Below, piece after piece: positions 1 through 55,650 of a stretch of 64,000 nucleotides of DNA. Under the pieces are notes generated by a model, which worked only from the letters and a program-made list of their open reading frames with translations, was not told the origin of the DNA and ran no database searches. Every line of letters starts with the position of its first letter. The stretch's first letter is position 1. The stretch lies in assembly GCF_050920415.1 (NCBI RefSeq), contig NZ_CP169309.1. The stretch is one strand, 5' to 3'. This DNA comes from Escherichia coli. GTDB lineage: Bacteria > Pseudomonadota > Gammaproteobacteria > Enterobacterales > Enterobacteriaceae. Made by a program: the position numbers and the translations under genes.

Positions 1-753
1 TAAACCGGCTTCCGTGGTGGTTTGGGGTTTATATTCACACCCAACCCAACCGTTGTAGTCAGAATTTTCAATTACCGTAAAGAGATACTCATAATTAATT
101 TCTCCGGTTCCCGGTTCGCCGCGATGCGGATTATCGGCAATTTGCAGGTGGCCAATTTTATCGGCCCATTGAGTCATAGTGTTGGTTAATTCACCTTCCA
201 TCCGCTGCATATGATAAATGTCATACTGAATTTTCAAATTGCAGCAACCAACATCATCAATCAATTTCAGCGCCTGTTGAGTTCCGGTGAGATAGAAACC
301 AGGAATATCAAAATGGTTAATAGGTTCAATCAGTAATAAAATATCTTCTTTCATCAGCATATTCGCGGCATAACGCAGGTTTTCTACAAGCGTTGCGTGA
401 ATCTGTTCACTGCTGAAACCAGCCGGCGTTTTACCGACCAGACAGTTGATTTTTTTATTACCCAGCGCACGAGCATAACGAATCGCTGCTGCTACGCCAT
501 CCCGAAACTCTTCTTCACGGCCAGGAATACAAGCAATACCGCGCTCCCCCGCCGCCCAGTCACCCGCCGGTAAATTGTGCAGAGTATGTTCGAGTTTATT
601 ACTCGCCAGCACCTGTTTTAATTCTTCAATGTCGTAGTCATAAGGAAACATAAATTCAACGCCGCGAAAACCACACTGCGCTGCTTTCTCAAAACGGGCG
701 AGAAAATCATATTCACCAAATAACATCGATAAATTCGCAGAGAAACGTAACAT
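1..753 (-). CDS. hyi: hydroxypyruvate isomerase, partial (3' end runs off the window start)
   Basis: Minus-strand translation from the ATG at 751-753 reads MLRFSANLSMLFGEYDFLARFEKAAQCGFRGVEF..., matching my recollection of E. coli Hyi; lies immediately downstream of gcl as in the gcl-hyi operon. Confidence 0.85.
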   Translation of the reverse strand, partial: MLRFSANLSMLFGEYDFLARFEKAAQCGFRGVEFMFPYDYDIEELKQVLASNKLEHTLHNLPAGDWAAGERGIACIPGREEEFRDGVAAAIRYARALGNKKINCLVGKTPAGFSSEQIHATLVENLRYAANMLMKEDILLLIEPINHFDIPGFYLTGTQQALKLIDDVGCCNLKIQYDIYHMQRMEGELTNTMTQWADKIGHLQIADNPHRGEPGTGEINYEYLFTVIENSDYNGWVGCEYKPQTTTEAGL

Positions 754-765
754 TATTTATCTCCC

Positions 766-2547
766 TTATTCATAGTGCATGAAGCAGGTTTCAGTCGGTG
801 CATCCACTGCGTTATCGGCGATATCTTCAAATTCCATGACATTATCCAGTTCGCTGCCCATCGAAATATTGGTCACACGTTCGAGAATAACTTCCACAAC
901 TACCGGAACACGGTATTGATTCATTAATGCTTTCGCCTGTTCAAATGCCGGAGCAATATCTTCCGGTTTGAAAACACGAATCGCTTTACAACCTAAACCT
1001 TCCGCTACTTTTACGTGGTCTACGCCGTAACCGTTCACTTCGCTGGAGTTAATATTTTCGAATGCGAGCTGTACGCAGTAATCCATATCAAAGGCGCGTT
1101 GCGACTGACGAATCAGACCCAGATAGGCGTTATTCACCAGCACATGGATGTACGGAATGTTGAACTGTGCGCCAACGGCTAATTCTTCAATCAGGAACTG
1201 GAAGTCGAAGTCACCGGAAATCGCCACCACATTGCGCTCTGGATCAGCGGCACACACGCCCAGCGCTGCCGGAATGGTCCAGCCCAACGGGCCTGCCTGC
1301 CCACAGTTGATCCAGTGGCGGTCTTTAAAGACATGCAGCATTTGTGCCGCAGCGATTTGTGACAGACCAATGGTGGTGACATAACAAACATCGCGACCAA
1401 AGGCTTTGTTCATCTCTTCATACACGCGCTGCGGTTTCACCGGCACATTGTCGAAGTGGGTTTTGCGCAGCAAAGTGCGTTTGCGCTGCTGGCAGTCGGC
1501 GACCCATTCTTTACGACACGGCAGACGACCCGCTTTTTGCATCTCCTGCGCCACTTCAACCAGTAAAGTCAGGGCAGCTTTAGCATCAGAGACAATCCCC
1601 AGATCCGGGCACAGCACGCGGCCAATTTGCGTCGGCTCAATATCGATATGGACGATTTTGCGCCCTTCGGTGTATTTCTCTACCGAACCGGTATGACGAT
1701 TGGCGAAACGGTTACCGATACCAAACACCAGGTCGGACGCCAGCAGCGTTGCGTTACCGTAACGATGCGCGGTTTGCAGACCCACCATCCCGGCCATCAG
1801 TTCATGATCGTCCGGGATACAGCCCCAGCCCATCAGCGTTGGGATCACCGGAACGCTGGTCAGTTCAGCAAACTGTTGTAACAGTGCAGCTGCGTCAGCA
1901 TTGATGACCCCGCCCCCAGCAACAATCACCGGACGTTCAGCCTGGATTAACATTTCGACCGCTTTTTCAATCTGCATACGGCTGGCAGCAGGTTTATAGA
2001 CCGGCAGCGGTTCGTACATGTCAGGATCAAACTCGATTTCCGCCACCTGAACGTCGAACGGTAAATCCACCAGTACCGGACCCGGACGACCAGAACGCAT
2101 CAGGTGAAATGCCTGTTGCAGCACGCGAGGCACCAGCGCCGCTTCACGAACTGTAACCGCCATTTTGCTGACCGGTTTAGCGATAGCTTCGATATCTACG
2201 GCCTGAAAATCTTCTTTATGCAGACGGGCGCGCGGTGCCTGGCCGGTAATGCACAGAATAGGAATGGAATCAGCAGAAGCAGAATAGAGCGCGGTGATCA
2301 TGTCCGTGCCCGCAGGACCGGAAGTCCCCAGACATACGCCGATATTCCCTGCCGTTGCGCGGGTATAACCTTCCGCCATGTGCGAAGCACCTTCCACATG
2401 ACGCGCCAGAATGTGACGAATACCGCCGTGCTTACGCATCGCTGAGTAGAACGGATTGATTGCAGCCCCCGGAACGCCGAAGGCGGTGGTAATACCTTCT
2501 TTCTCCAGCACATACATTGCCGCGTCAACGGCTCTCATTTTTGCCAT
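766..2547 (-). CDS. gcl: glyoxylate carboligase (tartronate-semialdehyde synthase), TPP-dependent
   Basis: ORF track 766..2637; protein from internal start [34 protein letters not shown] gives the 593-aa length I recall for Gcl; start trimmed to 2547. Confidence 0.92.
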
Positions 2548-2567
2548 TTTATTCCTACCTCTATTAA

Positions 2568-2584
2568 TTGGAAAAATTTTCCAA
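2568..2584. promoter_or_regulatory. putative AllR operator upstream of gcl (palindrome TTGGAAAAATTTTCCAA)
   Basis: Perfect 17-bp palindrome seen directly in sequence about 20 bp upstream of the gcl start; a near-identical palindrome is in the allS-allA intergenic region. Confidence 0.6.
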
Positions 2585-2598
2585 CTTTCAAATTTTGT

Positions 2599-2624
2599 CA
2601 AAAAAACCCGCTCCGCAGAGCGGG
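2599..2624 (-). terminator. intrinsic terminator downstream of allR
   Basis: GC stem CCCGCTC/GAGCGGG followed on the minus strand by a run of 7 T, just after the allR stop codon. Confidence 0.65.
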
Positions 2625-2636
2625 ATGCGACAGACA

Positions 2637-3452
2637 CTATGGATGTGCTTTCAGTCCCAACGCCGTGCTGATATCGCGGGCGGTGTCTCTGACCAGCTCA
2701 CCCTGACTGACAAAACGATCTTCTGTCAGTCTTGATGAAGGCCCGGAGATGGAGATAGCGGCAACAACGCTACCTACATCATCGTAAATTGCTGAAGCTA
2801 TGCAATTCAGACCTACAACATGCTCTTCTTTATCTACGGTATAGCCCAGTTCACGCGCTTGTTCCAGGTCCTTCAGCAAGGTGGGCATATCCACAAGCGT
2901 AGTTGGCGTAAACTGCTGCAAACCGGTTTGCAGAATGATGCTCATCAACTCCTCTTCCGCCAGCGGATAAAGCAGCGCTTTGCCCGCACCGGAAGCATGC
3001 AGCGGCAGACGACTGCCCAGCGGCGCACACATCCTGACCATCGATTTACACTCTAATTGACCAATTAATACTGCTTCATTGCCGTTACGAATCGCGACAT
3101 TGACCGTTTCGCCGGAAAGTAACATCAGGCGGCGCATAAATGGCCCAGCGACGGAGAGGACATCGCGGTTATGGATGTACGCCGCACCGACGTTAAAGAC
3201 ACCTAATCCTATATGCCACCAGCCTAACTGACTGTCCTGATAGACAAAATCCGCTGCCTGTAAAACCTTCAGCAAGCGAAAGGTCGTGGAGAGCGGCAAA
3301 TCCAGATTGAGAGAAATATCGCTAACCGACGAACTTCCCCCACTTTTTTCCAGATATTGCAGAATCGCAATTCCCCGCTCTAACGCCTGTGCGCCCTTTT
3401 GTGCCACAGGCTCCGCCTGTCCTGGCCTGCCGCGCCGTCTAACTTCCGTCAT
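2637..3452 (-). CDS. allR: IclR-family repressor of the allantoin regulon
   Basis: 271-aa ORF with N-terminal HTH and IclR-type effector domain; position between gcl and allA. Confidence 0.9.
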
Positions 3453-3529
3453 ACCTACGTTAACTCCGACCTACAAGTGAGCATAAACAATGAACAATTA
3501 GTTTATCTTATGCAAGTCGGTTGCAGGCG

Positions 3530-4012
3530 TCACGCAAAACAGAGTTCCTGTTCAGGAATACTTTCAACATCACAGTTGTCACTGCCGCCGCGATCGATGG
3601 TCAGAAAATCGGTGACGCGCTGCCAGGCGAAAAGTGGGTGATGCCAGACGTTACGATGGTAATTCACTCCCTGTTCACCGTTGGTAATAAACGCCCGCAG
3701 GGTTGACAGGTCTGGTTTGTCGTCACCTAACGCCACGACCACCACAAACACTTCCCCTTTCATCGGAATAAAGGCCTGAGTGCCCAGCGGATGACGTTCG
3801 AGTTCGTGAATGGTCAGCGGCAGATTCGCCGGTTGCGCGCGGTTAATGCTGATAAGCGTACGGTCTTGCTCAAGAATCTCAACCAGCGCCAAATCGTGGT
3901 AACGCTCCACCAGGCCATTGTTAATATGGAAAAAATCCCGTTGCTGCGTTTCGATTACGTCGCCATAAGCACTAAAGGCTTCCTGACTTAACGGTAATAC
4001 CTGAAGTTTCAT
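3530..4012 (-). CDS. allA: ureidoglycolate lyase
   Basis: 160-aa [24 protein letters not shown]...; conserved neighbourhood with allR and allS. Confidence 0.88.
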
Positions 4013-4116
4013 CTTTTTGTCCTTGTAACATAATTCCGTTCAACCACCGCCGACCGGTCAATGTGGTTCAATAACAGGCAATCTAAAACCTTAAGAGAAC
4101 AACATCAATACAAATG

Positions 4117-4133
4117 TTGGAATATTTTTCCAA
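4117..4133. promoter_or_regulatory. putative AllR operator in the divergent allA-allS intergenic region (TTGGAATATTTTTCCAA)
   Basis: 17-bp inverted repeat seen in sequence, near-identical to the site upstream of gcl. Confidence 0.6.
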
Positions 4134-4240
4134 AACTAGATTTAGTCCACAAATCACACAGGGTTATCATGTAAAAATACTGATAAATCAGAGGATAAGA
4201 AAATCACGCAACTTGCGGATTTAAAAGGGGATACCTGAAG

Positions 4241-5167
4241 ATGTTCGATCCAGAAACCTTGCGGACTTTCATTGCGGTTGCTGAAACAGGAAGTTTTTCA
4301 AAAGCGGCAGAACGATTATGTAAAACCACGGCGACGATCAGTTATCGCATTAAACTTCTGGAAGAGAATACCGGAGTGGCGCTGTTTTTCCGCACGACTC
4401 GCAGCGTGACGTTGACAGCGGCTGGCGAGCATCTACTTTCTCAGGCCAGAGACTGGCTGAGCTGGCTGGAAAGTATGCCCAGCGAGCTGCAACAGGTGAA
4501 TGATGGCGTGGAACGCCAGGTGAATATTGTCATCAACAACCTGCTCTACAACCCCCAGGCCGTCGCCCAGCTGCTGGCGTGGCTGAATGAACGTTACCCC
4601 TTTACCCAGTTTCACATCTCCCGACAAATCTATATGGGCGTCTGGGACTCGCTATTGTACGAAGGTTTTTCACTGGCTATCGGCGTCACGGGAACCGAGG
4701 CGCTGGCAAATACCTTTAGTCTTGATCCCTTAGGATCGGTGCAATGGCGCTTTGTCATGGCGGCGGATCATCCGCTGGCGAAAGTTGAAGAGCCGCTAAC
4801 AGAAGCGCAGTTGCGGCGCTTTCCGGCGGTTAATATTGAAGACAGCGCCCGCACCTTAACCAAGCGCGTCGCCTGGCGTTTGCCGGGGCAAAAAGAGATT
4901 ATTGTTCCCGATATGGAAACGAAAATCGCCGCCCATCTGGCGGGCGTTGGCATTGGTTTTTTGCCAAAATCACTTTGCCAGTCAATGATCGATAATCAAC
5001 AATTGATCTGCCGGGTAATCCCAACGATGCGCCCTCCTTCGCCATTGAGTCTGGCATGGCGCAAATTTGGCAGCGGCAAAGCGGTAGAAGATATTGTGGC
5101 CTTGTTTACCCAGCGCAGGCCGGAAATCAGCGGATTTTTAGAAATTTTCGGCAACCCACGCAGTTAA
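4241..5167 (+). CDS. allS: LysR-type transcriptional activator of allantoin catabolism
   Basis: 308-aa ORF with N-terminal LysR HTH ([20 protein letters not shown]) and LysR substrate-binding domain; divergent from allA. Confidence 0.88.
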
Positions 5168-5220
5168 AAATCAAGTTTCCTTGCGCGTTGGCGCGTAAAA
5201 TAGCGTGCAAGCTGATTTGA

Positions 5221-6330
<1,110 letters not shown>

Positions 6331-6364: not shown

Positions 6365-6783
6365 TATACCCGTCATACTTCAAGTTGCATATGCGTTGGC
6401 AAGTTATTCAGGGATAGCCGGATGAGTGACATCACCATCCGGCTTAAGATTCCATACTATAATAATTCGAGTTGCAGGACAAAACGCCAGTGGCGTTTTG
6501 AACAACGCTTGCGTTGACCCTGAAAGGGTGAGGCCTAAGGCCGAGTAACGCGACAGGCGAGTGACAAATTCGTCGGGAACGAATTTGACCAGCCTCTGGC
6601 TGGCCTTCGGTGAAAGGCATCCTGCCTTTCAGTCATCCCCAGTCACTTACTGGGGTGAGCGACAAATCCGCATGGAGCGGATTTGAACGCTGCTTGCAGC
6701 GGTCCCGTAAGGGGTGAGGCCCATGGATGGGCCGAATAACTCGCAGACGCAGCACATGCAACTTGAAGTATGATGGGTATATA
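6365..6783. repeat. composite ERIC/IRU-like intergenic repeat with terminal inverted repeats and an embedded REP-like hairpin
   Basis: About 30-bp terminal inverted repeats (TACCCGTCATACTTCAAGTTGCATATGCG at 6365-6395, reverse complement at 6747-6783); internal ACTGGGGTGAGCG and GCAACTTGAAGTATGA match the ERIC consensus as I recall it; hairpin GCCGGATGAGTGACATCACCATCCGGC at 6418-6444. Confidence 0.5.
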
Positions 6784-6939
6784 CACAATGAACTTCAAGA
6801 CACTTGCTTCGGTATCTGGAAATTATCATTAATTCTGGATGCGACCAGCCTTGCTATATCTGGCAATGTTTCTTCAAAAACGTCGATATTGTATCCCAGA
6901 AATCTCACACACTGCTGAACCGGCATGTTCATTAATTAT

Positions 6940-7351
6940 TTATCCAGGCCATTTGCAATCAGTACCATCACTATTATATGCCTCAATATTTTCTTCAAAC
7001 TCAGTTATTTTTCCACTTTTCGATTTATAGTAAGAGCTATTAAATCTTGCACCCTGCGTAGCAACAACATACAATCCGTTGACTTTACATCCTATAACCT
7101 CACTCCATGTATATGTAAACTCTGAAGGTCTATCATCGAAAGTCACTTCCAATTTTTTCGTAAATGCAAGAGGTATGAAATTTGAGGATATTCCATAAAC
7201 CACATAACCTAAAACAACATCACCAGAAGATACTTCAACAAATTTTAAATTTATCTTCCCGAAACTAAAACAGCCAACCGTAGTTTGTTATTTAGCAAAT
7301 AAGAAAAAGGGCATCAAACAAAAAATTAAAACAAATAATTTAACTTTCATA
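6940..7351 (-). pseudogene. small secreted-protein gene interrupted by an in-frame TAA after the signal peptide
   Basis: ATG at 7351 encodes MKVKLFVLIFCLMPFFLFAK then TAA; the same frame continues open into ORF 6940..7203 (…VVYGISSNFIPLAF…). Confidence 0.35.
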
Positions 7352-7703
7352 TCATTTACTCCAATTCAGTTATTCGCCTCTGTACAAAAGCACACACAGA
7401 TTTTGAATTAATGGCGTACAAAAACATAATCGGATGAAAATACCACACCGGAATATTACTGATATAGCGGGATCTTACTCATTCGCTAGACTGAAAATGC
7501 AATTGAACAGAAATTTCTTACTAGTGTTTTTATCAGATGATCGGAAAGGAAATCAACTCACTGGCAAGTATCATAAGCTCAAATTGGCATATTGTATATT
7601 CCCATAAATACTTTTATTTTTTGATTAACATACTCAATACTACACATCACTAATTGAGAGAAGATTAACTTCATCATCTTTGATTAGGTACGTTTTTTAA
7701 TTT

Positions 7704-7922
7704 TCAATGACGCATCATAAAAAAGGGCTTACCAAGTTTAACACTAATAACAGGATATAAAGAAAACATATTGCTATATGAATCCTTTGGCGATGTTTTG
7801 GTTATGGTAATCTTTCCTTCTTTCAAGTGCTCTGCTATTATATGAAATTGAATCGGTCTTGTTGCATCACTTACCCGCAATGGATTACCAGCGTAAGCTT
7901 CATATCCTCCACCATTATTCAT
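7704..7922 (-). other. gene fragment in AT-rich debris (open frame extends upstream to 8020 without a start codon)
   Basis: ORF track plus manual frame extension; no start or RBS, low-complexity AT-rich context. Confidence 0.2.
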
Positions 7923-8268
7923 ATGTAAAATAGTGTATTCGTCATTTAAAAATGACTGCTTACTATCGTAGACTTGGTAGTATATATTACTTATATCAAG
8001 ATAAATTACTATAGAGATATACTTAATTTTTCATTTAGCATTAATGATGTATCCATGGAATCTATACATCTTTCAATATCAGTTATTTTTTCTTCTATAT
8101 ACGTAGCATAATTTTTTGGCACTGGCGTGTTTAGCCCTCATATACCCTCATTAACTAAGACACCATTTTGCTTGCTTTTTACATTGTAATAAAGACAATC
8201 AATATTGAATTTATTATTTTTATATTTCAGTGTTGTATATACAGTAAAATCATGCAGCGAACGCCCAT

Positions 8269-8544
8269 CTAAAACAATTGCGGGCGTGTCAGAAAAAAGT
8301 CAAATGAATAAGATGGATTATTTTCATAATCAGTCATAAATTTCATCTTTCTTATTTCATGATCAACGATCGCATAGATCTCATGATTAGATTCATCATA
8401 TCCATAAATGATTTCACCACCAGTACTGGCAGTAGCAGTAGCACTACTACAAATCAACATAATTACAAGTACATATCTAGTCAAGTTGAAAATCCTTAGG
8501 GGCAGATGATGTTTTTTCCAAGATGGATTGAAATTTTTCAACAT
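8269..8544 (-). CDS. hypothetical small protein with hydrophobic N-terminal segment, possibly a degraded or orphan immunity gene
   Basis: ORF track; segment YVLVIMLICSSATATAS resembles a signal peptide; AT-rich context. Confidence 0.25.
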   Translation of the reverse strand: MLKNFNPSWKKHHLPLRIFNLTRYVLVIMLICSSATATASTGGEIIYGYDESNHEIYAIVDHEIRKMKFMTDYENNPSYSFDFFLTRPQLF

Positions 8545-8854
8545 AAGAATCCATTAATTGCTTCTGATATTTTTCATTAATTATTTTTCGCGTATTATTA
8601 TATTAAATTTTATCACTGTTAATATATGTGGGGATTTTTACTCGTAAAAATCCCCGCCTCAATTCCCCAAATCATAATTGATACAGGACACAACTCTAGC
8701 AATGGTATCGTGAATAGTTTTCTTTAATAAGGCACGTCTCAATTCTTGAACATAAATTCGAATTATTTAGTAAAAAAACATCATCCCTGGGAGTATTACC
8801 TATTTTTGTATAATGCTATATTTATAGTAAACAATTCACAAGAAAATATTATTA

Positions 8855-9805
8855 CTAATATTTATATTCCTCCCACTGAGCACCGTATCGATGCTTTAAC
8901 AGTTTAACTTTAATTTCATCATATGTTTTAACTTTACTACCATCAATCTTAAGGCGAATTTTATTCGAGGTGATATCAACATAATTTCTATTTTCCCCAC
9001 CCGCAGGGAAAAAATCAAACATAAAATTAGACATGTTTTGTTCTTTTTTCATGAGAGCTCCATACTCACACATGTCATTTATATTTTGTATGTATGGAGT
9101 GCCCCCCTGACATGATGGATAATGAAAATCAATTATAGTAAAAAGCGATTTATTGACACTCCTCTGAAAGAACCACTTATTATTTACAATACGATAGGTT
9201 AAAGATTTAAATGTATACCAGTGACTTCCTGGAAGAAAAGAGTAAGCTTCATTAAGATTGACAGTAAATACCTTAGTTTCTCCAGAGGAAAGCTTTACCC
9301 ATTCTGATTTTATATCACAATTATCGCCCATACCAAAATAAAGCTCATCATTGGCATCATCCTCAACAAAATCACATATATTGGTTGCGGAAGGACGGAA
9401 TTTCAGATAGAAACCACTTGTGGATATTAAAAAAGAATCCTCACATAAAGGAGAAAAAAAATAAGGCTCCGATGTGTGTGAGGAGATAGGTAATAATCGT
9501 CTATGAATGAAATTTTCGCTACCCCCCAAATTTGTAAAACTTATTTTTGCTAACACACGAGAGTCAATTTGCTTAACGGTTAATCTAACATCAACATCAA
9601 ACATATTACGATTTGGCAATTTTTCCTCGACTCCGTCAGTGTAATGTGATAACTCAAGTATATTGTCCTCAAGAGTCATCGAATTTAATTTTTGTTCGGA
9701 AACATATTGTGCAATAACCTCATCATTGCAGTATCCATGAAATGAAATAAACATTAGCACTGCAATCTTAACTAATCTCAAAATACTTTTCAATATTGTA
9801 TGCAT
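8855..9805 (-). CDS. putative periplasmic immunity protein (paralogue of 11491..12312) for the HExxH effector
   Basis: N-terminal signal-like segment MHTILKSILRLVKIAVLMFISF; shares SFLPGSHWYTFKSLTYRIVNNKWF with [24 protein letters not shown] of the other immunity candidate; start chosen at the internal Met. Confidence 0.5.
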   Translation of the reverse strand: MHTILKSILRLVKIAVLMFISFHGYCNDEVIAQYVSEQKLNSMTLEDNILELSHYTDGVEEKLPNRNMFDVDVRLTVKQIDSRVLAKISFTNLGGSENFIHRRLLPISSHTSEPYFFSPLCEDSFLISTSGFYLKFRPSATNICDFVEDDANDELYFGMGDNCDIKSEWVKLSSGETKVFTVNLNEAYSFLPGSHWYTFKSLTYRIVNNKWFFQRSVNKSLFTIIDFHYPSCQGGTPYIQNINDMCEYGALMKKEQNMSNFMFDFFPAGGENRNYVDITSNKIRLKIDGSKVKTYDEIKVKLLKHRYGAQWEEYKY

Positions 9806-10567
9806 TATTAAAAACCAGCGGGTCATGTTTTGATTTTAATTCTTTTGCATTGGCAATTTCTCTTTTTTTTCCCAAATCGTTACTGCTTAATCCACCATAA
9901 TACTGTTCTCCATCCCAGATAATAAAAAGGTGAGATAACTCATGGCATAATGTGGAGACTCGAGAGTTTTCTCCCGTTGGATTTTTACATGTGAAATTTT
10001 GTAAGATATCTATAGATATTCTTTCTCGATACTCTAACTTTAAAAGTTCAGCCTTCGACTTATTTTTATACTCACTACTTTGGTATTGGGGCCGATTTAG
10101 ATCTATATGAGTCGTCTGAGCAGCCGGTATACGGGCTGAACCATTGACTAAATTGGTATAATTTTTAAAATTGCCATATATTAGTTGTACATTATCTTGC
10201 GTTCGAGTTTCAATGATCAAGCTATCACAAATCATGATCATTCTGTAAACCCCCTCTTTTATAAAAGTATGTGCGTCAATATTCTTGGTTTGTGGAGTGA
10301 AGTTCCCATTATTATCTGACTTTTGACAAGGAGCATAGTGTTCCATTGTTATAATAGCATCACCTGGTAATCCAAATATATCTTCAAAATTTTTCTGATC
10401 TGCTGGTGTCCATGCTTCCAGATTTTTGCTCTGATATTCAATACTCGCTTTGTTTCTTCCAAAGCAGGCGTTATCATGTTGTAAAATTGATCAGTAACCT
10501 TTGCTTCTTTTTTACATATATTGCCTTTTTGAGTTACCCCTTGTGAACTTCCTTTGTTATTATTCAT
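9768..10567 (-). pseudogene. frameshifted paralogue of the vgrG-linked HExxH effector
   Basis: N-terminal part in ORF 10349..10582 (KEAKVTDQFYNMI versus KEQKITDHFKIMI in the intact copy), remainder in a different frame 9768..10346 carrying STLCHELSH and NNAYNIEKYFEI; frames differ at about 10346-10351. Confidence 0.5.
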
Positions 10568-10975
10568 AAACACCTCCCTCAATCATATCTATACTTTGAT
10601 GCAATAGCCTGACTTTTATCGTCAGCTCACTGTCAGTGATAAATATTTCCGTATACCCATCCTTATCCGTTTCCCCTCGCGCTTGTGTGCCGTCCTCAAA
10701 AAAGGCAATGTAGCGTGTTTCTGAATACGGTATCCCGTCATCGTCTGTAAAATGAAACTGGAGGGTGTATTTCTCAGGTTCATCCTTATCTTCATTGTCG
10801 TTCCCAGAATCATTTCCATCGCCACCACCGACCCCGCCATTGCCTTGCCCGCCCTCTGCACCACCATCTTTATCACTACCTTCATCCGTCAGTGCCTCCA
10901 GCACGCCCGGTTGCAGTGTCGGTACCGGAGTCCCCGGACTACCCCCACCATTCAGATTTATCTTCGGCCCCCAGG
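10560..10975 (-). pseudogene. vgrG 3' fragment (C-terminal about 135 codons of a second vgrG allele)
   Basis: Nucleotide-level similarity to the 3' end of the intact vgrG (for example CCGTCCTCAAAAAAGGCAATGTAGCG..TTTCTGAATACGGTATCCCGTCATCGTCTGTAAAATG), breaking off at about 10975 where the H-repeat fragment begins; encodes DEPEKYTLQFHFTDDDGIPYSETRYIAFFEDGTQ. Confidence 0.6.
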
Positions 10976-11340: not shown

Positions 11341-11490
11341 ATTTCTTCAGCCCTTTCCATTCAAACGTGAAATCAATAAGTTCATCAGGGACATCGCAAA
11401 CAATATGAAGACGGATTTCTTCTCTGCCGTGACTAAAATGCGAATTATTTAGTACAAAAAAAGCGGCGCACCTTGTTCTTTCCCAGATTC

Positions 11491-29669: not shown

Positions 29670-30077
29670 TCACCCCGCTCGATGATGACAGCAGCCGGAG
29701 AGATTTTCGATAATTGGGCAGTCGGCGCTGTCATCACCGGGGCAGGCATTCGCCAGCGCCAGTAGCTGGTCGCGCATGGATTGCAGCTCCTCAATGTGCC
29801 GTTCGATCTCCGCTACCTTCTCCAGCGTACGACGTTTGACGTCGGCACTGTGACGCTGCGGATCGTTAAACAGATTCACCAGTTCGCCGCTCTCTTCCAG
29901 GTTAAAGCCCACCTGGCGCGCCTGGCGCAGTAAGGTCAGTTCGTTGAGATGCTGCTGCGTGTAGGTTCGATAACCATTTTCGCTGCGCATCGGCGGCGTC
30001 ACTAGCCCCTTTTCTTCATAGAAGCGAATGGCTTTGCTGGTCAGGCCGGTAATTTTTGCTACATCGCTAATGTTCAT
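29670..30077 (-). CDS. cueR: MerR-family copper-responsive transcriptional regulator
   Basis: 135-aa [29 protein letters not shown]... with C-terminal metal-binding Cys pair (CPGDDSADC), matching recalled CueR. Confidence 0.92.
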
Positions 30078-31249
30078 CGTTCGCGCAACGCCTCCTGTGC
30101 TTTGTTAAAGGGTTTCAACAGATAATCCAGCACGCTTTTTTTGCCGGTGCGGATATCGACCGTCGCCACCATGCCGGGAAATATCGGAAACTGCTGTTTA
30201 TGTTTATTTTCCAGATGGTTGCTGAAAGTGCGAATGTACACCCGATAGTAATAAACATCGCGTCGCACTTCATCCTGCACGGTGTCTGGTGATATCACCG
30301 CCACTTCCCCCGGCAGGCCGCCGTAGATGGAGTAGTCGTAAGCGGTTATTTTCACCAGCGATTTTTGCCCCGGATGGATAAACGCCACATCGCGGGGGGA
30401 GATTTTTGCCTCGATCAACAGTTGCTCATCCAGCGGCACGATAGTCATAAGTTTACCACCGGGGGCGATGACGCCGCCAACCGTGGTGACGTCAATGTCC
30501 TGAACAATGCCTCGCACCGGCGCAGTAAAGTTGAGCCGGGTGAGAGAATCTTCCCGCCCGCGGATCACCGAACGCTGGGTTTCCACTTCCGCATTGGCTT
30601 TCGCTAACTCTTCCCGCGCCTGTACGTAGTATTGCGTACGCACGTCGCTAAGTTTGTTTTCCAGTTCATTGGCCTGGCGTTGCAGGCGCAGCACTTCAAC
30701 GCTGCTCGCCGCCCCCTGTTTCACCAGCGGCTGGGTCATCGCCAGTTCGCGGTTGACCAGGCTGATCCCCTGCGTCAGCCCGGTGGTGGCTTTGTTCAAC
30801 CCGTCGCGGCGAGTGTTATATAACGCCGTTTCCGACTCGATAAGTTCGGGGAATTTATTCAGTTCGTCAGGAAAGACCAGCGGTTTATTGCTCACTTCTG
30901 CCCGCAGCCGCGCCGAGGTTGCCAGCGCCGCATACAGCCGCGACATCGCTTCCTGGACGTCGGATTCCGTTTTGGTGCGGTTAAGCTGCGCCAGCGGCTG
31001 CCCCTGTTCGACAATATCGCCAACCTTCACGTCGAGATGATACAAAATCCCGCCTTCCAGCGACTGCACCACCTGTTCGCGTCCAGAAGGTTCTACCGTG
31101 CCGCTGCCGGTGGTGACTTCATCAAGCTGGAAGTACCACGCCCAGCCGAGAAAACAGAGCAGCATCACAGCGGTAACGCGCACCGCCAGCGCCGAACGTG
31201 GCAGGCGGGGTTCAGTCAGGCCACGGTTGTATTGCAGTTGTCCGTTCAT
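30074..31249 (-). CDS. type I secretion periplasmic adaptor (HlyD-family membrane fusion protein)
   Basis: 391-aa ORF with N-terminal TM segment, coiled-coil and beta-barrel domains; overlaps the ABC gene by 4 bp. Confidence 0.85.
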
Positions 31250-33408
31250 GCGGCAGACCCCTTATTCTTCTCCTGCAACACCACGCGTCGCGTCGTGGGT
31301 TCGCCCTGTTCACGCAAAATGGTCTCTTTCGCGCCGTCCATCACAATGCGCCCCTGATCCATCACAATTATCCTGTCCACCAGTTGCAGCATTGCCGTGC
31401 GGTGAGTAGCGATGACCAGCGTGCGATGCCCAATCCACTGTTTTAGTTGTTCAATTAAATACGCTTCCGCCATTTCATCCAGCGAGGCACTGGGTTCATC
31501 GAGCAGGACGATATTGGGTTGAGAGATGAGCAGCCGCGCCAGCAGCAGCGTTTGCCGCTGGCCGCCAGAAAGACCAAATCCCCCTTCCTGAATCATGTAG
31601 TTAAGGCCGTTTTTCTGCTTCTGCACAAACGGCAGCGCCCCGCTGAGGGTCAACGCGCGTTCGATATCTTCATCGCTGGCTTCTGGCATCCCCATGGTGA
31701 GATTTTCCCGCAGCGAACCGAAGAACAGTCGCCCAGTCTGGCTCAGCAGCCCCATGTCGCGGCGCAGATCCGCCGGATCAAGTTGCCCGATGCTGATGTT
31801 ATCCAGCAGCACCTGCCCCTGCTGGGCGATACGCATTCCGGCGAGCATTTGCAGTAGCGTTGATTTACCCGCGCCGTTGCGCCCGAGAATGGCGATTTTC
31901 TCTCCGGCCTGAATGTTGAGTTTGCCGATCGCCACATCGGCAATCTTCTCTTCTTCGTCGTAATAAAACACCGCGTTGCTGAACTGATAATTTCCGTGCA
32001 GCACTGCTTTATGCACCAGTTTGCCGTGTTCCGGCTGATCCACCGGGCGCTTCATCAGTTCATCAAGGCCATTACGCGCCACTTTCGCCTGCTGCCAGCG
32101 CGAAAGCACGCCGGATATCTGCGACAGCGGCGCAATGGTGCGCGAAGCCAGGATCGTCGTCCCGACCAGCGCGCCGGTGGTCATGTCGCCGCTCATCACC
32201 ATAAAGCAGCCCACCAACAGCACCACCACATAGACGATGGATTGCACTTCCTGCGTCCAGGTGAGCAGCAGCCCGGTGAGAAAACGTTGCTTCATACTGA
32301 TGGACGAGGCCACGTCGTTGGTGTGATTCCACTGATTCTGGAAACGCTGTTCAGCACGCAGCAGTTTAATGTCTTCAATCGACTGCACGGCCTCGACAAG
32401 CGTAGCGTTGCGCACTGCCGATTCGCGCATCCCTTCGTTCGCCAGCCGCGCCAGCGGGCGTTGCACCAGCAGGCCGGGGATCACCAGCAACGGCAGCGCC
32501 AGCAAAACAACCAGCACCAGCCAGCCGCCGATCATCCACAGAATAAAAACAAACAGCAGGAAGAACGGCAGATCCGCCACCGCGCCAATGGTGGTGGAGG
32601 TGATCAGCTCCCGCACCGATTCCAGTTCGCGGATCTGTGAGATAAACGATCCGGTGGATTTCGATCGCACGTTATTTTTCAGCCGTAATGCGTGACCAAA
32701 CACGCGATCCGAAATACGCAGATCCGCCCGTTTGCCGATCACATCGGAAAGGTGTGTGCGCACCATGCGCATACAGAACTCAAACAGGATCGCCATCATC
32801 ACCCCGGCGAACAGCACCCATAGCGTCGGGTAGGACTGCGCCGGAACAACGCGGTCGTAAACCTGCATCGAGAAAATCATCGCCGCCAGCGCCAGCACGT
32901 TCGCCACCAGCGAGGCCAGCATAATATCGCCATAGCGCCGCCAGTCTTTTAGCGAAAGATTCCAGAACCAGTTAGCCTGATACGGGCGAATGTAGTCATC
33001 CACCCGCGCATCGGGGATGGCGCTGAGCGGGCGCAGTAGCGCCAGTTCAACGATTTTGTCTTCTATATCCGTGACGTTTAGCGTAGTTTCCAGCCCTTCG
33101 TCACCGCTGAACTGAACGCTGATATTATCGTGATTGTCGCGGCGGGTGATCACGCCAATCTGTTGATTATCAAACACCGCGATCAACGGCAGACGCCAGG
33201 GGTTAAGCGAATCAGTGGAAAACTCCACCAGCCGTAGCCCCATCCCCAACTGCCGCGCCATGTCGGTGAGCAACTCTTCCCGCTTGCTGTCGCGCTCCCA
33301 GTTGACGGTCGCGCGCACGTTCTCCTGGGAAAAATCGAGGCGGTAATAACGCGCCACGGCGATCATCGCCTCCAGCCAGGCTTCCACGGACTGGGCATTT
33401 TTTTTCAT
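31246..33408 (-). CDS. type I secretion ABC transporter (N-terminal C39-like domain, permease, ATPase)
   Basis: 720-aa ORF with Walker A GRNGAGKST, signature LSGGQRQ and Walker B LLDEPSASLD; about 130-aa N-terminal extension typical of HlyB-type exporters. Confidence 0.88.
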   Translation of the reverse strand: MKKNAQSVEAWLEAMIAVARYYRLDFSQENVRATVNWERDSKREELLTDMARQLGMGLRLVEFSTDSLNPWRLPLIAVFDNQQIGVITRRDNHDNISVQFSGDEGLETTLNVTDIEDKIVELALLRPLSAIPDARVDDYIRPYQANWFWNLSLKDWRRYGDIMLASLVANVLALAAMIFSMQVYDRVVPAQSYPTLWVLFAGVMMAILFEFCMRMVRTHLSDVIGKRADLRISDRVFGHALRLKNNVRSKSTGSFISQIRELESVRELITSTTIGAVADLPFFLLFVFILWMIGGWLVLVVLLALPLLVIPGLLVQRPLARLANEGMRESAVRNATLVEAVQSIEDIKLLRAEQRFQNQWNHTNDVASSISMKQRFLTGLLLTWTQEVQSIVYVVVLLVGCFMVMSGDMTTGALVGTTILASRTIAPLSQISGVLSRWQQAKVARNGLDELMKRPVDQPEHGKLVHKAVLHGNYQFSNAVFYYDEEEKIADVAIGKLNIQAGEKIAILGRNGAGKSTLLQMLAGMRIAQQGQVLLDNISIGQLDPADLRRDMGLLSQTGRLFFGSLRENLTMGMPEASDEDIERALTLSGALPFVQKQKNGLNYMIQEGGFGLSGGQRQTLLLARLLISQPNIVLLDEPSASLDEMAEAYLIEQLKQWIGHRTLVIATHRTAMLQLVDRIIVMDQGRIVMDGAKETILREQGEPTTRRVVLQEKNKGSAA

Positions 33409-54294: not shown

Positions 54295-55650
54295 TTATTT
54301 CAAGTCGGGTAAGTCGTTGTATAAGCCCTGCTTAATTCCCGCTAATGGAATAAGGTTATTCACCGCAGCGGCATAATTCACAGCGGCAACCCAGCCATCA
54401 TAATTGACATTTATTTCAGCTGATTGCGCCTGAAAGACATCTTGCTCAACGGTTAAGAGATCGTTCAGGCTGCGTTTACCCAATTTATATTCATTTTGGT
54501 ACACATCTCGCGTTCTGTGCGCACTTTCAGATTGCGCTAACCCAGCCTCTTCACGACCCCGTGCCCCAGTCCAGTTGGCATACGCCACCGACGCCCGTTG
54601 CATAACATCTAATTTCGCCTGCTCAACCTGCGACGCGGATATTTTTTGTTGCCCTTCGGCTTGCTGAACCTGAGCCGAAACCGCGCCGCCCTGATACAAC
54701 GGCGCGTTGACGTTCAACTGTAACTGGTCGTCCCAGTACGAGCGGTCGCTGGTCTGGTAGCGTGTTTTGCCGCCCTGAATACTGAGCGTCGGCCAGTATT
54801 GCGCTTTCGTTTTTTCCACACCGTACTGTGCTGACTGGCGTAAGTTTTCTGCCGCCAGCACCAGTGGGATGGACTGGTAATCAATATTTTTCAGCGATAC
54901 CGGCTGCTCGGCTAATTCAGCAGGTGGCGCGGCTATCGCCTCCGGCTGTACGCCAGTAAGCACCGCCAGTTGCGCTTTGGCGCTCGCCATCTGCGCTTGA
55001 TATTTCTCCAGGGTTGAGCGCATTCCGGCAATACGCGTCTGGGCCTGTAATTCATCCGACGATGAGTTCAGGCCAGCGTTAGCGCGCAGCGCCGCCATGT
55101 TGTAGACGTTTTCCAGCGAGTGGATATTGCGTTGAGCCGCATCGCACAACGCCTGATAACGACTGACCTCCATATAGGCAGTCGCCGTTTTTTCGGCAAC
55201 ATCGGTTAAAGTTGCCATCAATTTAAAGCGGTAGCTGTCACGAGCGGCGGTTTGCAGTTTGATATCGTTATCTGTTTTACCGAAGTCATACACCAGCTGT
55301 GTCAGGGTTATGCCATACGAAACGTTGTTATCAAGCCTGCCGCTGGAGTCCGTTTGCCGTGACGGCCCCGCGTTGCTGGTTAATCCAACGTGTGGATACC
55401 AGGCACTTTTGGCTTCATCAATTTGCGCTTCGCCAATACCTATCTGCGCCGCCTGTTGAGTGACGTCGGGATTTCGCGCAAAGGCGCGTAATATACTTTC
55501 CTGTAAAGATAATCGGGCAACTGGCGTTACCGCTGGGGCGTTCGCCCATTGTGGCAGCGGTGCAGCAATTGTAGCTTCTCCCATCACCATAAAACTTATT
55601 AAAAAAATAAGTCCATTATTTTTACGGTTTTTAAACTGGAATCGCGCCAT
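54295..55650 (-). CDS. TolC-family outer membrane channel of the T1SS
   Basis: 451-aa ORF with signal peptide and two-repeat OEP architecture rich in Q/A coiled-coil segments; first gene of the apparent T1SS operon. Confidence 0.82.
   Translation of the reverse strand: MARFQFKNRKNNGLIFLISFMVMGEATIAAPLPQWANAPAVTPVARLSLQESILRAFARNPDVTQQAAQIGIGEAQIDEAKSAWYPHVGLTSNAGPSRQTDSSGRLDNNVSYGITLTQLVYDFGKTDNDIKLQTAARDSYRFKLMATLTDVAEKTATAYMEVSRYQALCDAAQRNIHSLENVYNMAALRANAGLNSSSDELQAQTRIAGMRSTLEKYQAQMASAKAQLAVLTGVQPEAIAAPPAELAEQPVSLKNIDYQSIPLVLAAENLRQSAQYGVEKTKAQYWPTLSIQGGKTRYQTSDRSYWDDQLQLNVNAPLYQGGAVSAQVQQAEGQQKISASQVEQAKLDVMQRASVAYANWTGARGREEAGLAQSESAHRTRDVYQNEYKLGKRSLNDLLTVEQDVFQAQSAEINVNYDGWVAAVNYAAAVNNLIPLAGIKQGLYNDLPDLK

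Follow-up and report, generated by a model that had tools for sequence, protein, structure and literature searches.

Positions 6785-8854 of a 64,000-nucleotide stretch of the Escherichia coli contig NZ_CP169309.1 (NCBI RefSeq assembly GCF_050920415.1; the whole stretch is referred to as the window) very probably hold two orphan modules, each consisting of a C-terminal toxin and its immunity gene, that derive from type VI secretion system (T6SS) effectors of the WHIX class. These effectors are a class of polymorphic T6SS effectors in which the commonest C-terminal toxin is chitinase/GH19-like, and the genes downstream of them usually encode signal-peptide proteins that are taken as immunity proteins (Fridman et al. 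2025, PMC12135965). With comparably high confidence, the region represents the fossil tail of an effector/immunity island linked to vgrG and set between ybbP and mnmH. The two immunity genes would probably have encoded periplasmic proteins that neutralise GH19/TseP-C-like peptidoglycan hydrolases. Observed directly are which pieces are present and in what order, their homology to intact genes that immediately follow WHIX effectors, the lesions, a better preserved array in Pseudocitrobacter and the insertion sequence (IS) remnants. The minus strand carries every assigned feature of 6785-8854, and approximately 91% of this region is assignable to homologues of known genes or IS elements:

8679-8785, minus strand: remnant of an ISAs1/ISEc1 (H-repeat) element, internally deleted, between the fossil array and immunity gene B
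8489-8684, minus strand: last approximately 65 codons of a GH19/TseP-C-like toxin, toxin X (ending in KFQSILEKTSSAPKDF), located by tblastn
7571-8484, minus strand: putative orphan immunity gene X, a pseudogene, defined by homologues, tblastn frame changes and a lesion map
8429-8443, minus strand: (GCAGTA)n hexanucleotide repeat that encodes Ala-Thr, just after the immunity X signal peptide
7473-7570, no strand: spacer between the modules, in place of approximately 1.1 kb of WHIX-fragment sequence of Pseudocitrobacter
7389-7472, minus strand: WHIX/C-terminal toxin boundary motif SRYISNIPVWYFHPIMFLYAINSKSVCA, located by tblastn and DNA identity to reference effectors
7356-7388, minus strand: last 10 codons and stop (FVQRRITELE, stop) of a GH19-like toxin, toxin Y, located by tblastn to the C-termini of the 829-aa (amino acid; locus L004) and 939-aa (locus L008) effectors
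6940-7350, minus strand: putative orphan immunity gene Y, 136 codons, with a signal peptide, a predicted eight-stranded beta-barrel and TAA at codon 21
6785-6919, minus strand: 3'-terminal remnant of an IS630-family transposase gene, adjoining a repeat cluster and forming the distal island boundary

In agreement with the original prediction, which was made from the sequence alone and described a strongly AT-rich tract with only short or broken open reading frames (ORFs), the G+C content of 6800-8850 is 0.315, or 31.5% (0.310 for 6920-8854), versus 0.511, or 51%, in the flanking core genes at 1-6330. The corresponding value for the body of vgrG is 0.585. The longest ORF with a start codon in 6800-8850 encodes at most 91 aa. 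Two plus-strand ORFs (6839-7030 and 7434-7607) were considered as genes and rejected, as they are antisense to regions accounted for by minus-strand homologies.

Immunity gene Y starts with an ATG at 7350-7348, meets an in-frame TAA at 7290-7288 (codon 21) and reaches its normal stop at 6942-6940. The original prediction had correctly placed a TAA at codon 21 of a signal-peptide ORF. The approximately 85 further open codons that it gave were an undercount, as the actual number is 115; the lower figure probably came from an 87-aa ORF with a GTG start at 6940-7203. By inspection, the leader MKVKLFVLIFCLMPFFLFA, which precedes a Lys residue, has a basic N-region, a hydrophobic core and an Ala at position -1. 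A model of the intact protein (61 sequences; predicted local distance difference test score, pLDDT, of 93.4) has a helix at residues 3-11 and an eight-stranded beta-barrel from residue 22. Because the predicted barrel begins at residue 22, the codon-21 stop falls where the signal peptide gives way to the mature domain. Twenty-two homologues of intact immunity Y (81-142 aa, most 131-142) were found in Enterobacteriaceae, with representatives in E. coli, Klebsiella, Salmonella, Citrobacter, Siccibacter and Cronobacter, and an exhaustive search returned 85 clusters at the 50%-identity level. At the nucleotide level, 6942-7388 is 83-84% identical to positions 8963-9409 of L004, an E. coli locus, and 11887-12328 of L027, a locus of Pseudocitrobacter faecalis.

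The placement of these homologues is informative. In E. coli, Klebsiella and Cronobacter, they lie 5 bp after, or overlap by 4 bp, genes for vgrG-linked effectors of 829-939 aa, and co-oriented placement directly downstream of a T6SS toxin gene is found for both the immunity Y and the immunity X families. The effectors that precede immunity Y homologues carry a WHxxxH motif and an EF-hand, and their GH19-like C-terminus matches endolysins and TseP-C (PDB 8XCL); the WHxxxH motif reads WHGGIH in L004, L008 and L027. Such coupling to WHIX/GH19 effector genes is the signature of a cognate immunity gene. In Salmonella enterica (L025/L026), an immunity Y homologue is one of four small genes in a row, of 158, 136, 138 and 134 aa, that no effector gene adjoins, and this row may be a further orphan immunity array.

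Upstream of immunity Y, two pieces of an effector gene remain. The boundary piece SRYISNIPVWYFHPIMFLYAINSKSVCA (7472-7389) corresponds to residues 538-565 of the E. coli L004 effector, the site of transition from the conserved N-terminal part to the variable toxin. Its tblastn alignment with residues 538-571 of this effector shows 60% identity over 35 aa, and its DNA is 86-90% identical to L004 8141-8201 and L027 11054-11126. The sequence VWHFHPVVFL occurs at the same position in every reference effector and also opens orphan muramidase fragments at other loci. The boundary motif and the toxin Y tail meet at 7388, with approximately 760 bp of the toxin domain gone in frame, and the deletion lies between two imperfect repeats, TTGCAACAGAGATATAAC and TTGTAGAGAGACGAATAAC. 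Beyond the boundary piece, the spacer at 7473-7570 had no match in any search; in strain RMDEC465 it carries five substitutions and a 5-bp deletion relative to the window.

The second module comprises toxin X and immunity X. The original prediction had listed ORFs without start codons; these open frames are real but are not separate genes, being frame-shifted pieces of one gene of approximately 305 codons. Homologues of immunity X of approximately 290-311 aa, of which the intact ones have 301-310 aa and a signal peptide, were found with the merged 91-aa ORF and its downstream frames, and tblastn of these homologues onto the gene reveals four changes of frame. The fragments 8544-8269, 8122-8009 and 7922-7704 all belong to immunity X, for which the TTG at 8484-8482 is a possible start. 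The interpretation of 7704-7922 and 8269-8544 as two separate genes was rejected, as both align to a single homologue of approximately 305 aa. Relative to the intact gene of P. faecalis (78.5% nucleotide identity), immunity X has 1-bp deletions near 8300, 8033, 7720, 7693 and 7623, an 11-bp deletion near 7646, and a nonsense change near 8140 (TGC to TGA, Cys116 to stop), so that six deletions break the frame and one codon is nonsense. The nine related alleles examined all have the same frame-breaking lesions, except that RMDEC465 keeps the base at approximately 7623, which indicates that immunity X decayed stepwise. With this damage in immunity X and the TAA at codon 21 of immunity Y, both immunity genes are pseudogenes in the window, and from their sequences neither would be able to yield a functional exported protein. 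The (GCAGTA)n repeat that follows the immunity X signal peptide has 2.5 copies here, one more in strain N96 and at loci L017 and L018, three more at L021, and 26.5 perfect copies in RMDEC465 (10625-10783). This repeat is hypervariable and could serve as a strain-typing marker.

The toxin X stub ahead of immunity X matches residues 855-920 of a 920-aa effector (L011) and a 293-aa orphan toxin of Cronobacter (L014). It contains one frameshift near 8622-8650, and the remainder of the toxin gene is absent. An immunity X homologue is located 2 bp after the 920-aa effector in a T6SS main cluster, and others stand behind orphan toxin fragments in Cronobacter (the 293-aa toxin, again with a 2-bp gap) and Pseudocitrobacter. 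The intact toxin X domain matches GH19 chitinases/endolysins and TseP-C (PDB 8XCL). The 920-aa effector has a WHGGVH motif, an EF-hand, the GH19 match, an N-terminal extension before the WHIX domain and an upstream DUF3828 (Tai3-type) gene, features that together, at the level of sequence, constitute the layout of WHIX subclass II.

The reference effectors thus share the WHxxxH motif, EF-hand and GH19-like toxin with WHIX effectors (PMC12135965) and with the TseP-TsiP system of Aeromonas dhakensis (PMC11893102, PDB 8XCL), and they likewise precede a gene for a small signal-peptide protein. Unlike these systems, the window has no WHIX domain and retains approximately 28 boundary codons and the last 10 and approximately 65 codons of two toxins. 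When four WHIX effectors were searched by tblastn across the whole window, only the boundary and tail stubs were returned, and of the C-terminal peptidoglycan-targeting toxin domain only the 10 codons of toxin Y and the approximately 65 codons of toxin X are present. The region is therefore made of remnants of such effectors and is not itself a member of the class.

An array in which both immunity genes are intact is found in P. faecalis (L027), with the same order as in the window: a GH19 toxin-X fragment, a 309-aa immunity X, a 527-aa WHIX fragment with toxin Y and a 135-aa immunity Y. Its DNA is 78-86% identical to window positions 8680-7547, 7460-7388 and 7388-6944. The L027 array sits behind vgrG fragments (4269-5412) whose protein is 82-91% identical to that of the window vgrG (15522-13549). 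On the basis of the likeness of both array and vgrG, the array of the window descends, in more eroded form, from an island that is shared and moves horizontally. At the sequence level, the island backbone is common to both genera and the cargo is swapped, as the L027 vgrG is trailed by WHIX modules and not by the M35-type metallopeptidase modules that follow vgrG in the window.

Among 5,426 complete E. coli genomes, the region is present in three: N96 (99.6% identity), MFDS1022581 (100%, with an inserted IS2) and RMDEC465 (97.4%). The search for near-identical copies excluded the distal repeat cluster, as repeat matches swamped the result when it was included. In MFDS1022581, a 1,336-bp insertion near 7593-7600 is annotated as IS2, and in AP025747 (L017), a 1,335-bp insertion near 8012 has IS3-family transposase fragments called within it. 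Immunity Y of RMDEC465 has lost one further base pair. These independent IS insertions, the variable hexanucleotide copy number and the extra RMDEC465 deletion are evidence that the region is under relaxed constraint. The three carrier genomes are exactly those in which a second locus carries an intact WHIX toxin Y of the GH19 type, along with an immunity Y paralogue (P0001) that is 76% identical to the orphan; in related Escherichia (L004-L007), this second locus is a vgrG island near mtlA. The co-occurrence points to a rare lineage carrying both loci. The orphan immunity Y may be redundant beside the second-locus paralogue, which would fit its decay.

The array is bounded by IS remnants on both sides. 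At the distal end, 6785-6919 is 84.6% identical over 135 bp (blastn) to the 3' end of a frameshifted IS630-family transposase coding sequence of E. coli A39, and its homology to this family is that of a fragment. At the proximal end, 8679-8785 consists of two pieces that are approximately 86% identical to transposase genes of the ISAs1 family found in over 5,000 E. coli genomes, where they span approximately 370 bp; this is likewise a fragment of an ISAs1/ISEc1 element, with no intact transposase. A 39-bp portion of it matches sequences that flank orphan modules in other Escherichia (L004). The toxin-adjacent homologues and the lesions support the original prediction of decayed orphan immunity or secreted-protein genes at the distal end of the toxin island. 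The comparison with homologues and other strains that it had proposed gave homologues of both immunity frames, with intact copies in other Enterobacteriaceae. It had missed the toxin stubs, the in-frame excision of toxin Y, the ISAs1 and IS630 bounds, and the probable direction of change at codon 21.

Codon 21 of immunity Y exists in three states. It is CAA (Gln) in E. coli, Klebsiella and Salmonella homologues; TAA in the window, MFDS1022581 and the divergent RMDEC465; and TAT in N96 and six draft or complete assemblies. In N96, the resulting 136-aa ORF is intact and is annotated as WP_000865233.1. Since a change from CAA to TAT requires TAA or CAT as an intermediate, and since site 6837, which is linked to codon 21, is derived in the TAT haplotype relative to the IS630 outgroup, the series CAA to TAA to TAT is the most parsimonious. 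The intact TAT allele is thus probably a pseudo-revertant that would have been re-opened from the TAA nonsense allele. Ordinary decay from an intact Tyr21 allele to TAA, with no re-opening, appears unlikely. In its favor, loss is commoner than reversion a priori, and the intact Tyr21 allele is found on at least 14 contigs; however, a TAT-first route must still pass through TAA or CAT from the CAA of the homologues, must accommodate both the TAA of the divergent RMDEC465 haplotype and the derived state of site 6837, and needs at least three or four changes versus two. Two aspects of the data count against the TAA-to-TAT direction: it is a matter of parsimony over few haplotypes, and the TAT loci were gathered by a search with the intact protein and form a small sample. 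A more elaborate proposal, that immunity Y toggles between off (TAA) and re-opened (TAT, Tyr21) alleles and that Escherichia WHIX/GH19 toxins select for the re-opened form, is doubtful; if true, it would make immunity Y a naturally resurrected T6SS immunity gene.

A different origin for the immunity Y family was also weighed. Its members could be general periplasmic lysozyme inhibitors of the PliC/MliC type, directed against host or phage lysozymes, with the toxin adjacency incidental. This explanation is improbable. The identity of immunity Y to PliC is 6%, with no detectable sequence similarity and no Pfam match, and the presumed target is GH19-like rather than a C-type lysozyme. Moreover, in three genera the homologues are tightly coupled to WHIX/GH19 effector genes, with the 5-bp gap or 4-bp overlap, or else they occur in orphan arrays beside other toxin fragments. 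The PliC and immunity readings are not fully exclusive, as a fold of the PliC type may have been put to use for immunity. For the assignment of the region to WHIX-derived orphan modules, several points weigh on the other side: no Pfam or NCBIfam model matches either immunity family when the repaired frames are scanned; the proposed immunity function is drawn from conserved gene order, the signal peptide and the resemblance of the predicted fold; the order in which WHIX modules came first and M35 modules later is modelled and not observed; and approximately 190 bp (7473-7570, 6920-6939 and 8786-8854) have no assignment.

There is a slight chance that the region is still functional, by way of a leaderless 87-aa product (GTG at 7203), a 30-codon mini-ORF formed by the junction and toxin tail (7448-7356) or a regulatory RNA. 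The toxin Y deletion is in frame and leaves a short ORF that ends 5 bp before the immunity Y start, and the longest stop-to-stop open stretch, of 115 codons, exceeds 97.7% of mononucleotide shuffles (its length is reached by 2.3% of them). In contrast, the 87-aa product lacks the signal peptide and the first three predicted barrel strands, and sister strains accumulate IS elements and indels in the region. A Rfam scan (E ≤ 1) gave no match inside 6800-8850, with sub-threshold matches only over the repeat copies at 6369-6747, and promoter-like sites in the region are not enriched (11 versus 13.8 ± 2.8 in shuffles), with a similar outcome for the terminator scan. The notion that the breaks are sequencing or assembly errors in genes that are intact in the strain, to which AT-rich, homopolymer-rich DNA prone to indel errors and the intact 136-codon ORF of N96 lend some plausibility, has next to no probability, because the TAA is a substitution and not an indel and is shared with two other complete E. 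coli assemblies, obtained independently (MFDS1022581 and RMDEC465, the latter 2.6% divergent), the immunity X lesions are common to the nine related alleles save for the one RMDEC465 base, and the truncated 87-aa product is also called on other contigs. The original prediction was thus left standing on both points that it had named as able to overturn it, error correction and a lack of homologues: there are homologues, and independent assemblies show the same lesions.

The orphan modules lie at the far end of the vgrG island, the remaining parts of which are:

8855 upward, minus strand: the vgrG island, with vgrG at 15555-13117
Proximal pair of the vgrG island, minus strand: effector A (M35-type metallopeptidase) and immunity gene A
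Between immunity gene A and effector B, minus strand: an ISAs1 remnant, then a fragment of the vgrG C-terminus
Distal pair, minus strand: effector B and immunity gene B, the latter at 9826-8855

A 25-bp sequence is found downstream of both immunity B (8754-8778) and immunity A (11436-11460), in the same orientation and with 92% identity, and is probably part of the ISAs1 remnants that trail each module. In Pfam and NCBIfam scans that also took in the neighbouring effector and immunity proteins, effector A gave only weak M35/M91-type matches. The orphan effector B (M35-type; 9768-10568, minus strand) is frameshifted at 10427-10428 by the loss of one C (ATTTTTGCTC versus ATTTTTCGCTC). N96 and MFDS1022581 have the gene intact, with 266 aa; in RMDEC465, a stop codon truncates it independently. 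Since effector B is broken both here and in RMDEC465, decay reaches the next module proximal to vgrG.

In the proposed course of events, newer M35-peptidase effector/immunity pairs would have been added proximally, next to vgrG, with ISAs1 remnants at the joins, and the older WHIX modules would have been left further from vgrG. Lacking a secretable toxin and under little selection, these older modules would have decayed. Toxin X would have been truncated and toxin Y excised in frame; immunity X would have acquired its six frame-breaking deletions and stop, and immunity Y its CAA-to-TAA nonsense change at codon 21. In a sister haplotype, a later TAA-to-TAT change would have re-opened immunity Y.

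Orphan immunity arrays in hcp/vgrG islands, some of them inactivated by frameshift or nonsense mutations, have been described in Pantoea agglomerans pv. betae (Carobbi et al. 2022, PMC9796082). As in these arrays and those of Vibrio cholerae (Kirchberger et al. 2017), the window holds leftovers downstream of the current pair that record past effectors; some of the modules are inactivated by frameshift or nonsense mutations, and the DNA composition is unlike that of the host core genome. Unlike in those arrays, both orphans here are dead, the toxin stubs are still recognisable, ISAs1 remnants mark the joins, and the modules come from WHIX cargo effectors and not from the M35 type now linked to vgrG. 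The region is a clear instance of a known orphan immunity array, built from WHIX-effector modules, and not a new kind of system. It also resembles the orphan modules of Rhs and CdiA proteins, whose toxin-tip/immunity cassettes open at a boundary motif (PxxxxDPxGL in Rhs and VENN in CdiA, as compared with VWHFHPVVFL here), and E. coli rhs loci, which likewise have ISAs1/H-repeat fragments between modules. Unlike in Rhs and CdiA systems, the carrier here is a VgrG-delivered cargo effector, and the toxins would act in the periplasm. By analogy with the Rhs/CdiA demarcation motifs, the VWHFHPVVFL boundary may be a recombination point at which WHIX C-terminal toxin/immunity cassettes are swapped.

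The array is of interest for its still visible toxin stubs, for the excision of one toxin in frame and for an allele that may have re-opened. It illustrates that a vgrG island can retain a legible, layered record of abandoned effectors, and it provides a worked example of module decay by toxin excision, frameshifts, nonsense mutation, IS insertions and microsatellite drift. The homologies also suggest a likely role for two unannotated Enterobacteriaceae protein families, namely periplasmic immunity against GH19-like WHIX toxins. The CAA-TAA-TAT series suggests that an orphan immunity gene can re-open, which bears on standing T6SS defence hidden in apparent pseudogenes. For annotation, all of 6785-8854 should be marked as pseudogenes or remnants and not as hypothetical proteins.

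The window opens with the E. coli core genes gcl, allR, allA, allS and mnmH, the last of which ends at 6330. Between mnmH and approximately 6784 lies the cluster of enterobacterial repetitive intergenic consensus (ERIC) and repetitive extragenic palindromic (REP) sequences that adjoins the IS630 remnant; the ERIC element is recognisable by its consensus. A segment of it, 6742-6782, is found again in 5,422 of the 5,426 E. coli genomes. The family RF02902 (Aggregatibacter sRNA 22) gave sub-threshold matches at 6472-6554 and 6654-6747 (36.3 and 25.5 bits; gathering score 39.8), which probably reflect the ERIC/REP repeat structure and not an sRNA gene. At the same chromosomal site, E. coli K-12 has rhsD. 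Further into the window, a 6,924-codon ORF is present at 33412-54186 (minus strand), with neighbours of 391, 720 and 451 aa (30074-33408 and 54295-55650). From their size and arrangement, these genes may encode a giant repetitive adhesin with its type I secretion system.

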